Source of the DNA: Escherichia coli
GTDB taxonomy: Bacteria > Pseudomonadota > Gammaproteobacteria > Enterobacterales > Enterobacteriaceae
Reading direction: 5' to 3' (one strand)
Length of the DNA: 64,000 bases
Assembly (NCBI RefSeq): GCF_041248615.1
Contig: NZ_CP158426.1
The position numbers were made by a program. This document shows, in pieces, positions 39,650 through 42,600 of this stretch; the first letter of the stretch is position 1, and each line of letters starts with the position of its first letter.

Positions 39650-42600
39650 TAAATTTAATACAGCATCTATCGCCGGATGCGATGCTTTGCGAACGCAGCC
39701 TGAGCCTGCATATAAACTTGTCATTTCCTGATTTTGATATGCTCATACCAACATCAGAAGAATGTTAAATTATGGATGACAAACCATTGCAGGCTCTGGC
39801 TAATCAACTCAAAACACCGGCTCAAGAAAGTCAGCATAATGGCTTCTTCTGACTGCAACAGGTGAAGAATAACCAGCCCCGCATTACCGGTATCCCCGTC
39901 AACCATCAGGGGCCCCAGCCTGACATCGCCTGAACATATTCCCCCACGCAACCTGCCGCACTGGCGTAGCCCACACAATAGGCGTTTCAGACTGCTCAGT
40001 AACTGTAGTGGCGTTTCATCCGCCTGTAGCACCGGATGCATGAGCGATTTCTTATAGTTATTCCTTTGCTTAATAACGATTATTTCCGGGTCGTTCGCTC
40101 TCGTATTTTCTTTAATACGTCAGAGCTGCCTGGGCCGTAATACAGCATGTACCAGACCCGACACGGCATTTCTGACCAAGGGAAAAAGTCAACGATGAGT
40201 CGTTATATCAGCGCAAATGACGTCCTGTGGCACCTTTGCGGTGACCACATTCACGTCTCCGGCGCTGCCAGAGGATATTTATTTCAAGGATACGTAGCAT
40301 TATGGCCAGCATTAAAGACATCCGCCCATTCGCCCCCGGCATTCCCCCATCTTCCGTTAACCCAGGCGTACGCCCACCAGGGCAGTTCTTCCTGCCGGTG
40401 GAACTCAAGAATGAAATTTTGCGGAACATGAAGTATATCGGCCCGCAAATATTTAGCTGGGGTGATGACCACCGGCAGATCATTGACCTCAGTACCGCGG
40501 GCGAAGTGAAAATACATATGGTAGACAATACCATCATCACGTTGGAGCGCCTGAATCCGAATCCGCAACATAACGAGTTCATGATGGTCGCCGAATGGTG
40601 CCAATGGGCTATGGAGCGGGATGGTTTGCAAGAAAACCTGCAAAAAAACCTGTACGAAATCCTGGAAGAAAACCAGCAAAACAAACAGTCAGAAATTCCC
40701 CAAGAAGACCTGAAAGAAAGTCTGGAAGAAATCAAGGAAAATATCCTGGAAGAAAACCTGCCAGCAAGCCGGATTGAAAACCGGGCAGAAGCATTGCGCA
40801 GAATGAAGGAATGTCTCATTACAAGACGGAGTATGCTCAATCTTAGCAACCTGGGATTGACTTCACTCCCTGAAAATTTGCCTCCACATCTGATTGAATT
40901 TTACTGCAGTAAAAACGTGTTGACCGCGTTACCGAAGGTGATGCCAAAGTGGCTGCTGGTGCTTGACTGTACAGATAACATCTTGATCTTGTTACCGAAG
41001 GTGCAGCCCTCAAAACTGATGGTGCTGAATTGCTATGACAACTGTATTATCTGGCTGCCTGAGCTGTCGACTAACCTGAGAGTGATTAACTGTTCTGAAA
41101 ACTTCTTGCAATTTTTACCGCCGTCGATGCCCCAGTACCTGTATAAACTATCCTGTGCCGGCAACAATATTAACTCAATACCTGATGAGATGCTGGAGAA
41201 CTTGACTCGCCTGAAAGTATTTGACTGTTCTAGTAACGATTTGATCTCTGCACCACGGCTGCCGCCCAAACTAATCATATACTACTGTGGAGAAAACCAG
41301 TTTAAAACGGTACCGGTGCCGCAGCCCCGAAGCCTGAAGGTGTTTAGCTGTAATGGTAACCCGTGGGACAAAGACAATTTACCGACGCTGCTCAAAGCCG
41401 TCGAGGGCCTGAAAAACCAGGAGGGTCTGGAGGAGCTTTTGGACTTTTTGCACAAGGAGTGCCAGTTGAAGCTGGAGAAGCTGGAGAAGCTGGAGGATCT
41501 GGATGACCTTATGGTTCTGGAGCTCCTGGATGACCCGGTACTCCTGGAGCGCGTGAAGGTACAGGAGGACCTGGAGCTCCTGAATCAGCAGTTGGGCCTG
41601 TTGAATCTGGAAAGACAACAGGACTCGCAGCCAGTTAATCAACATTCTGAACATGAACCCGAATCTGCATCAAGGGTGAAGCGTGATTTATCTGAAGTCG
41701 AGTTCGAGTCAACAATGAAACGTAAGCGTTTTATGTAGAACGCCTGTGCGGTGAACTCAGGTTCCGGGGAAATAGTGTCCATCATTTTAATGGACACTAT
41801 CATGGGAAATGGCTCTGTCACATCAACAACTACAGTTGCTGACCAGCCGGATGGATGATTTTTTCGCAACCAGAAGACGTTGCCTCCGATCCGGCTTACA
41901 ACAAGTTACACCGTCACAACTGGGACACGTAACGCCAGCGCGCACATCAACTCATAGCCCACCGTTCCGGCAGCGGCGGCGACATCATCAATTTTGATCT
42001 CCTTGCCCCACAGCTCAACCGGCGTACCAATCCCCGCCTGCGGGCAAGGCGTTAAATCAACCGCCAGCATATCCATCGAGACGGTCCCCACCGTCATGGT
42101 GCGCACGCCGTCCACTAAAACAGGAGTACCGGTAGGCGCATGGCGCGGATAACCGTCGGCGTATCCTGCGGCGACAATGCCGATTCGCTGTTCATCGCGC
42201 GCAGTATAGCGACCGCCGTAGCCCACACGCTCGCCCGCTTTTAGCGTCTGGACACCAATAATCTCACTGCTTAGCGTCATCACCGGACGTAATCCGGTAT
42301 TGGCGATATCACGCCACTGACCGGACGGCGAAGCGCCATACAAAATAATGCCAGGCCGAACCCAGTCAAAATGCGCTTCCGAGTGCCACAGAGTCGCCGC
42401 CGAATTGGACAACGAACGCCGACACTCCAGCCCTTCCGCCGCCTGCTCAATACGCGTCATCGCGCCGGAAATTCCATCAGGATGTTCCGCCTCGGCAAAA
42501 TGCGACATCAGGGTCATTTCGCCAACATTCGCCATTGCCCGCAACTGCTGCCAGACGGTAAGCACGCGATCGGGCTGGAAGCCCAACCGATTCATCCCAC

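Follow-up and report, generated by a model that had tools for sequence, protein, structure and literature searches.

The cvrA–dadX intergenic region

The analysed window is a stretch of 64,000 nucleotides of the Escherichia coli chromosome (RefSeq assembly GCF_041248615.1, contig NZ_CP158426.1), 100% identical to several complete genomes. The region considered here comprises cvrA, an island with an LRR gene, and dadX. A palindrome is situated between the LRR gene and dadX, which are convergent. The features of this region are as follows.

40302–41738, plus strand: LRR ORF, 478 aa, Pfam LRR_4
41772–41782, plus strand: left arm of the palindrome, ATAGTGTCCAT
41783–41789, plus strand: loop of the palindrome, CATTTTA, 7 nt
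41790–41800, plus strand: right arm of the palindrome, ATGGACACTAT
41845–41896, minus strand: REP-like long hairpin directly after the dadX stop codon
41906–42976, minus strand: dadX, catabolic alanine racemase

The spacer between cvrA and dadX is found in three states. In B2-type strains (Seattle 1946/ATCC 25922-like, ST131) the stop codons of the two genes are separated by 56 bp, and this empty site carries a CGCTGGAT...ATCCAGCG hairpin. An insert of about 2.2 kb with the LRR gene is present in approximately 830–1100 out of 5,426 complete genomes, including the window. In most other genomes, K-12 among them, the LRR gene has been lost and a scar, 'IS1414 (partial)', is seen instead. The K-12-type genomes retain the last ~75 bp of the LRR gene and the palindrome, the loop of the latter being CCTTTTA; the end of the K-12 deletion is at about 41665. 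Judged against the 56-bp empty site of the B2-type strains, the boundaries of the LRR island are near 39.69 kb and 41.88 kb.

The palindrome

The initial annotation described an inverted repeat at positions 41773–41799 with perfect arms of 10 bp, about 35 bp after the LRR stop codon and about 100 bp from the dadX stop codon. The letters are the same in our analysis, TAGTGTCCAT-CATTTTA-ATGGACACTA, and the pairing is perfect, but the arms are 11 bp rather than 10 bp long, as one more base pairs on each side. The distances also agree: the palindrome starts 34 nt downstream of the LRR stop codon (41736–41738), and the dadX stop codon (41906–41908) is 106 nt downstream of the palindrome. The palindrome is AT-rich, with G-C pairs at four of the eleven positions, and the predicted energy of the RNA hairpin is −14.3 kcal/mol on the plus strand and −17.6 kcal/mol on the minus strand. 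A T-run, whose absence had been pointed out from the start, is lacking on either strand, and the terminator scan gave no call. A search against Rfam yielded no match at E ≤ 1 in positions 39000–42500 of the window or in five intact IS66 loci.

Perfect inverted repeats with arms of at least 11 bp and loops of 3–12 nt occur five times in the 64-kb window, compared to 0.18 in dinucleotide shuffles. The exact pattern of the palindrome, with up to three mismatches allowed, is found in the window once and was never found in 100 shuffles. Its occurrence by chance is excluded.

A relic of an IS66-family left end

When the palindrome and its surroundings (81 bp) were used as a query, matches were obtained, besides the chromosomal locus, to thousands of sites, both plasmid-borne and chromosomal, where an 'IS66-like element accessory protein TnpA' is annotated to begin. 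The check proposed in the initial annotation, a search for the palindrome elsewhere in genomes, was thus positive: the palindrome is also present at the left ends of ISCro1-type IS66 elements, and a single E. coli genome may have as many as 18 of these. The ISCro1-type copies read ...ATAATGTCCAT-CATTTTTA-ATGGACACTATCGT-ATG.... In the BLAST search against plasmids, longer matches to IS66 left ends (Edwardsiella tarda, Pantoea, Enterobacter, Shigella pINV) start exactly at 41721/41722. The similarity points to two further features.

41722–41751, plus strand: terminal inverted repeat (IRL), GTAAGCGTTTTATGTAGAACGCCTGTGCGG
41722–41801, plus strand: relic of an IS66-family left end (terminal repeat and tnpA leader), cut off just after the hairpin

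The IRL of the relic coincides with the IRLs of intact elements from Pantoea, Erwinia and Edwardsiella at 22–23 of 30 positions, while the left and right repeats of the intact elements themselves coincide with each other at 17–25 of 30. The first 61 nt, aligned without gaps to the left ends from Pantoea dispersa and Erwinia typographi, are identical at 50 positions, and the segment 41755–41801 is 95.8% identical to one of the IS66 loci (L023). No nucleotide homology to the IS66 loci is seen beyond 41801. The IS tip and the beginning of the left arm are 50 nt apart in the window, in ISCro1, in the Edwardsiella and Xenorhabdus elements and in most elements of Pantoea and Erwinia, with 49–51 nt in a few cases; in the family comparison it is the 14-nt arm block that starts 46–49 nt in, the 11-nt arm itself starting 50 nt in. 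The palindrome occupies nucleotides 51–79 of the truncated element, the outer junction of which is at 41721/41722. The covariance model of the hairpin (see below) scores 60.9 bits on the window (E = 7e-15), the window being a member of the training set.

The relic shares with the IS66 family (ISCro1 and the Pantoea/Erwinia/Edwardsiella relatives with TnpA of about 210 aa) the GTAAGCG repeat, the 50-nt spacing and the ATG GAC ACT ATC start, and its arms and loop are near-identical to those of these elements. It has everything expected of a solo end of the family, that is, the terminal repeat (~25–30 bp) of the GTAAGCG/GTAACCG type and the leader hairpin with [A/G]TG at the right offset, and nothing of what marks a complete element, that is, genes, right repeat and target duplication. 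Unlike intact elements, it retains only the first ~80 nt. There are no ORFs for tnpA, tnpB or tnpC (DDE transposase) between 41801 and dadX, and the reading frame diverges after the vestigial ATG GAC ACT ATC and runs on into unrelated sequence. The 8 bp preceding the inverted repeat (AATGAAAC) are not repeated in 41801–41990, and an 8-bp target duplication is absent. No right terminal repeat is found either, the sole candidate ending with GCTTAC, at 41891–41899, being aligned with the native terminator half of the empty site. A MITE-like element bounded by the latter candidate (CCGGCTTAC) was considered and rejected, given its poor likeness to IS66 inverted repeats, the lack of a target duplication and the same alignment with the empty site. 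Since the tnpA, tnpB and tnpC genes, the right repeat and the duplication are all missing, and the homology stops at 41801, the segment 41722–41801 is, on the strength of its sequence, a solo left-end relic of an IS66-family element.

The relic extends into the LRR gene. The IS repeat begins within codon 473, and the last five codons with the stop codon, (C)GT AAG CGT TTT ATG TAG, fall within the terminal repeat, so the IS encodes the terminal residues (R)KRFM as well as the TAG stop. As the ORF ends within the terminal repeat, the gene has probably been truncated by the insertion. Close homologues of the LRR protein are found in E. coli and Shigella only, and all of them have 437–486 aa; among the homologues found, there is no full-length one running beyond the IS junction. 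The nearest relatives of the protein outside E. coli and Shigella are NEL-type E3 ligases, similar over the LRR part only. This suggests, as far as such comparisons go, that the IS insertion truncated an IpaH/SspH-like gene.

Of the three interpretations put forward in the initial annotation (protein-binding site, RNA stability hairpin, remnant of the insertion junction), the last one came nearest, in that the palindrome is a remnant of an insertion; it is, however, internal to the IS66 relic and does not mark the junction of the LRR island. Indeed, K-12 has lost the LRR gene and keeps the palindrome, and the island ends are elsewhere, hence the palindrome is neither the island junction nor the junction of the K-12 deletion. 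The latter had been considered separately and was rejected given the deletion end at about 41665. In two RefSeq records, those of strain 4621 and K-12, nothing is annotated at the relic, and the neighbouring 'IS1414 (partial)' is the sole mobile-element annotation in this intergenic region of K-12.

The hairpin in IS66 elements

To characterize the hairpin in the family, 80 loci around TnpA relatives were collected, one genome per species. Within this set, the hairpin is found at the same offset in all left ends whose GTAA terminus is recognisable. It is present once per IS66 copy, at the left end only, in the Enterobacterales, Pseudomonas, the Burkholderiaceae, the Neisseriales and others. 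Its main forms are the following.

Enterobacterales: ATA[G/A]TGTCCAT, 7 to 9 nt, ATGGACA[C/T]TAT
Pseudomonas: GATAGTGTCCAC-CATTTTTTA-GTGGACACTATC, up to 20 pairs
Neisseriales: AATGATGTCCAT, 10 nt, ATGGACATCATT
Burkholderiaceae, a different sequence: TTTGGTATCCACCA-AATTA-TGGTGGATACCAAA

Weaker versions are seen in the Rhodocyclales and in one actinomycete MAG. The loop is U-rich in the relatives; its length is 7, 8 or 9 nt among elements with identical or near-identical arms and varies from 5 to 15 nt in the whole family, and one Serratia copy has an insertion of 17 nt in the loop. A Mixta-type subgroup has only the ATGGACACT start, the left arm being absent. The direct repeats of ATGGACACT in this subgroup were considered as possible evidence for a protein site and dismissed, as they arise from the ORF start (M-D-T) being duplicated in tandem, in elements without the left arm. 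A suggested relationship between the palindrome and the extra N-terminal HTH of long TnpA was dismissed as well, since elements with short TnpA also carry the hairpin.

In the alignment of 31 sequences, 86.9% of the cells are paired, compared to 30–43% when the partners are slid. The covariation score is 0.343, while slid partners yield at most 0.10, and the observed value was reached in none of 500 shuffles. Compensatory changes are seen in six to eight pairs, including the U-A to C-G exchange at the first base of the start codon. The latter is the commonest one (15 U-A against 13 C-G): AUG and GUG starts are matched by CAU and CAC, respectively, in the non-coding arm. Covariation of this kind is equally expected for an RNA stem, a palindromic protein site and a DNA hairpin. 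The asymmetry between G.U and A.C, tried as a sign of sense-strand RNA, proved to be uninformative, the non-Watson–Crick cells of the sense strand comprising 11 G.U and 10 A.C.

With the covariance model, each IS copy yields a single match, which is on the tnpA strand and either immediately precedes the tnpA start or overlaps it, and the same holds for loci that had not been used for training. The right ends of 14 complete elements of 2.4–3.0 kb with recognisable terminal repeats contain only chance-level repeats and no such hairpin. Literature searches, both by text and by sequence strings, returned no description of this hairpin in the papers covered.

The tnpA start codon and the proposed mechanism

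The position of the right arm relative to tnpA depends on the branch of the family. In relatives with short TnpA (Pseudomonas, Neisseriales, Burkholderiaceae) the tnpA ORF begins at the first base of the right arm, the starts being GTG GAC ACT ATC (V-D-T-I-L), ATG GAC ATC (M-D-I) or ATG GTG GAT ACC (M-V-D-T). In these intact elements, it is the start codon that pairs with CAU or CAC in the three stem positions next to the loop. In the enterobacterial branch with long TnpA, the ATG of the right arm opens an upstream ORF of five codons, ATG GAC ACT ATC G(T/C)(A/G) TGA, the stop codon of which overlaps the ATG or GTG of tnpA; in two Xenorhabdus copies the two are in frame instead. In the window, the right arm starts with ATG GAC ACT ATC (M-D-T-I), the vestigial tnpA start, and the CAT at the 3' end of the left arm is the 'anti-start' pairing with the start codon. 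No Shine–Dalgarno sequence is visible in the IS66 leaders. Neither promoters nor terminators were called at the hairpin when this region of the window and the left ends of four intact IS66 elements were scanned, and no promoter was placed relative to the arms.

Taken together, the palindrome is, with good probability, the leader hairpin of a truncated IS66-family element, serving to occlude the start codon in live elements and being a neutral fossil at this locus. For the live elements, we infer an RNA-level translational mechanism, and judging by our analysis of the leaders, occlusion of the start codon most likely limits translation of tnpA.

The history of the locus is probably as follows. 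An IS66-type element, closest to the present ones of Pantoea, Erwinia and Edwardsiella, entered the LRR gene at its 3' end, and the GTAAGCG... repeat from 41722 thereby gave the LRR ORF its last five codons and stop codon. A later deletion took away everything beyond nucleotide ~80 (the right end together with tnpA, tnpB and tnpC), so that only the repeat and the hairpin remain. In the live elements, a transcript with both arms would have its start codon locked in a stem of 11–20 bp behind the U-rich loop. The transposition genes would thereby most likely be translated at a low level, and their activation by read-in transcription could be dampened, an effect that the 5'-UTR stem-loop has in IS200 (PMC4513863). 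Further, the constant distance between the hairpin and the IS tip could reflect a DNA-level role, for instance, that of a TnpA operator or a part in the architecture of the end.

A more general possibility, which in our opinion falls somewhat short of being probable, is that the hairpin is a cis-regulatory RNA, hitherto undescribed and common to the whole family, which sets how often elements of IS66, one of the most widespread IS families, transpose, a start-codon-occluding leader coupled in the long-TnpA branch with the five-codon upstream ORF, and that K-12 carries an unannotated fossil of it next to dadX. At the locus level, an odd palindrome is explained as debris of a mobile element, which matters little. 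At the family level, there is a strongly covarying left-end hairpin that includes the tnpA start codon, occurs in several proteobacterial orders and is not in Rfam. If it controls translation, it would offer a simple means of approaching how a very common IS family is regulated; it would also be useful as a marker in annotating solo ends of IS66, of which E. coli K-12 has one. Thus, the finding at the locus is ordinary, and the family-wide motif is a modestly interesting by-product.

Alternative explanations

The palindrome might be a DNA operator, its arms being half-sites for a dimeric protein, either the HTH-containing TnpA or a host factor, that autoregulates transcription of tnpA or contributes to assembly of the left end; the copy in the window may then be a vestigial or a still titrating binding site. 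TnpA does carry HTH domains (PF01527 and PF13384), and a palindrome that is perfect, specific for the left end and situated at a constant distance from the IS tip agrees with an operator. Moreover, the loop together with the arm edge often reads TATAAT or TTTAAT, and the covariation, with no bias of G.U over A.C, suits a protein site as well as an RNA stem. However, the spacing between the half-sites shifts by 1–2 bp while the arms remain identical, and ranges from 5 to 15 nt over the family, apart from the insertion in the Serratia copy; loops of variable length between like arms fit a hairpin better than a dimer site with fixed spacing. The operator model does not need the right arm to be the start codon region, although it always is, and in the Mixta-type subgroup the start is kept without the left arm. 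Finally, no promoter consensus was found. We consider the operator rather unlikely.

Another explanation would assign a role to the hairpin at the E. coli locus itself, as a co-opted element of an RNA 3' end, that is, a terminator or an exonuclease barrier stabilising the mRNA of the LRR gene on the plus strand or that of dadAX on the minus strand. The location of the palindrome shortly after both stop codons (34 nt for LRR, 106 nt for dadX) and the stability of the stem, −14 to −18 kcal/mol, agree with such a role, and the whole region downstream of dadX, on the dadX strand, folds better than shuffles (z = −4.3). On the other hand, both strands lack a U-tract, and the transcript ends mapped in K-12 are elsewhere. 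In the Term-seq data for MG1655 (Adams et al. 2021, PMC7815308, Supplementary file 1), the sole nearby 3' end is 1240019/20 (+), corresponding to position 41835 (−) of the window; on the dadX strand, the REP-like stem ends 10 nt ahead of this position and the palindrome follows 35 nt after it; a strong Rho-dependent region is listed at 1240513 (+), about 430 nt beyond the palindrome (PMC7815308). No 3' end is listed at the palindrome in K-12 (MG1655), a strain without the LRR gene. Hence the stability hairpin or 3' end suggested in the initial annotation finds no support in K-12, where transcript ends map away from the palindrome, this being the observation that had been named in advance as speaking against such a role.

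Conservation of the arms does not favour a 3'-end function either. They are no better conserved than the flanks: K-12 and the window differ at 5 of 81 nt, and the absence of differences in the arms is not significant (P ~0.2). In an O157-like strain, ATGGGCACTAT in the right arm creates a mismatch between the arms, and the B2-type strains lack the whole region. A co-opted 3'-end element is, in our view, improbable.

The last explanation, a chance inverted repeat or a recombination junction of the LRR island (an att-like site or a target duplication), is hardly credible despite the location of the palindrome in the inserted region near one island end, and is already refuted by the low expected number of such repeats (~0.18 per window), the recurrence of the same sequence at hundreds of IS66 left ends, its retention in K-12-like genomes without the LRR gene (deletion end ~41665), and the positions of the island ends, near 39.69 and 41.88 kb.

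Returning to the IS66 leader hairpin, its copy at this locus is most likely a neutral fossil that does nothing, because no gene is left for it to control. Still, it may retain some activity, for instance, as a decoy for an IS66 protein or as an antisense partner of transcripts from plasmid-borne ISCro1. It may also have an exapted role in E. coli, the Term-seq data describing K-12, which lacks the LRR gene.

Comparison with known systems

The closest parallel is provided by IS200, whose leader stem-loop prevents 30S binding, as experiments have shown (Ellis et al. 2015, PMC4513863). In both cases, an inverted repeat at the left end lies in the tnpA leader and buries translation-initiation signals. 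The intact IS66 relatives do have their initiation signals within the stem, as in IS200, whereas the relic in the window keeps a vestigial ATG only. The details differ: IS66 pairs the start codon itself, whereas IS200 pairs a Shine–Dalgarno sequence, the sequences of the two hairpins are unrelated, and IS200 has, in addition, a left-end terminator and an antisense RNA.

IS10 and IS50 are reportedly protected from outside transcription by 'fold-back inhibition', said to have been described by Davis, Simons and Kleckner in 1985 and by Krebs and Reznikoff in 1986. In these elements, pairing between a sequence near the end and the transposase initiation region is confined to transcripts coming from outside, and this requires the native promoter to be situated between the two pairing segments. 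The pairing of a near-end sequence with the initiation region is common to IS10/IS50 and IS66, but in the latter the scans did not place the promoter.

The palindrome also resembles intrinsic terminators and REP/BIME elements in being a stable hairpin between convergent genes. It differs from an intrinsic terminator by the absence of a U-tract, of a scan call and of a K-12 Term-seq 3' end at it. It differs from REP in being AT-rich and in having no GCCGGATG-type consensus; at this locus, the REP-like hairpin is the neighbouring one, at 41845–41896.

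Apparent island entry site and its flanks

The cvrA-dadX spacer of B2-type E. coli is 56 bp long and contains a single hairpin, CGCTGGAT...ATCCAGCG (2451–2506 of the comparison locus L009). In the window, the insert of about 2.2 kb is bounded by diverged halves of this hairpin (~39660–39700 and ~41850–41905, ends that are only approximate, with fuzzy exact positions), and hence the convergent-gene terminator appears to be where the island went in. The region has the following features.

39702–39801: IS1414-like fragment, about 100 bp, 82% identical to the K-12 "IS1414 (partial)", in the opposite orientation
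39754–40041, minus strand: short ORF, 95 aa, RefSeq hypothetical protein WP_001327846.1
40147–40431, plus strand: short ORF
40302–41738: LRR ORF, its 3' end within the IS66 terminal repeat
41845–41896, minus strand: REP-like long hairpin immediately after the dadX stop

For K-12, published Term-seq lists a single 3' end within the cvrA-dadX spacer, 1240019/20 (plus strand); it is situated 10 nt beyond the REP-like hairpin and is followed by a strong Rho-dependent region at 1240513 (plus strand), antisense to cvrA. The K-12 "IS1414 (partial)" scar stands in place of window positions 39711–41664, that is, of the LRR gene segment; this replacement points to a rearrangement or deletion mediated by IS1414.

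Coding content of the island

Both short ORFs lie upstream of the LRR gene, and neither has a match in Pfam. The final five codons and the stop of the LRR ORF are encoded by the IS66 repeat. Its close homologues, 437–486 aa in length, come solely from E. coli and Shigella and vary in the C-terminal repeat region rich in LE[DK]L. The nearest relatives outside these are the NEL-type E3 ubiquitin ligases, the similarity being confined to the LRR. The ORF probably represents an IpaH/SspH-like effector gene that has been truncated.

The leader hairpin in other IS66 copies

In the long-TnpA enterobacterial elements (L012–L023, L028, L054, L064), the ATG of the right hairpin arm starts a conserved five-codon uORF, M-D-T-I-V/A, at about 3195–3206 in most loci. 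The TGA of this uORF and the start codon of tnpA, ATG or GTG, overlap, as is typical of genes whose translation is coupled. Two Xenorhabdus copies have the uORF in frame with tnpA instead.

Five Pseudomonas copies (L080, L083, L085, L088, L089; around 3172–3220) have the left arm GATAGTGGACAC rather than GATAGTGTCCAC. The central TC is replaced by GA, making the core a direct repeat of GTGGACAC and leaving the stem with two central mismatches.

Two unrelated copies, from Serratia sp. H1w (L022, ~3127–3145) and an Enterobacter plasmid (L008, ~3257–3273), share an identical 17-nt palindrome, GATCTG-GGGCG-CAGATC, inserted in the hairpin loop in opposite orientations. It may be a footprint of something targeting hairpin loops.

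Finally, Paraburkholderia sp. BCC1885 (L060, ~6368–6404) has a perfect 17-bp hairpin, AGATCGTGTCCACGATC-GGC-GATCGTGGACACGATCT, 87 nt past another GTAAGC-type end. It shares the GTGTCCAC/GTGGACAC core and could come from an additional subgroup of IS66.
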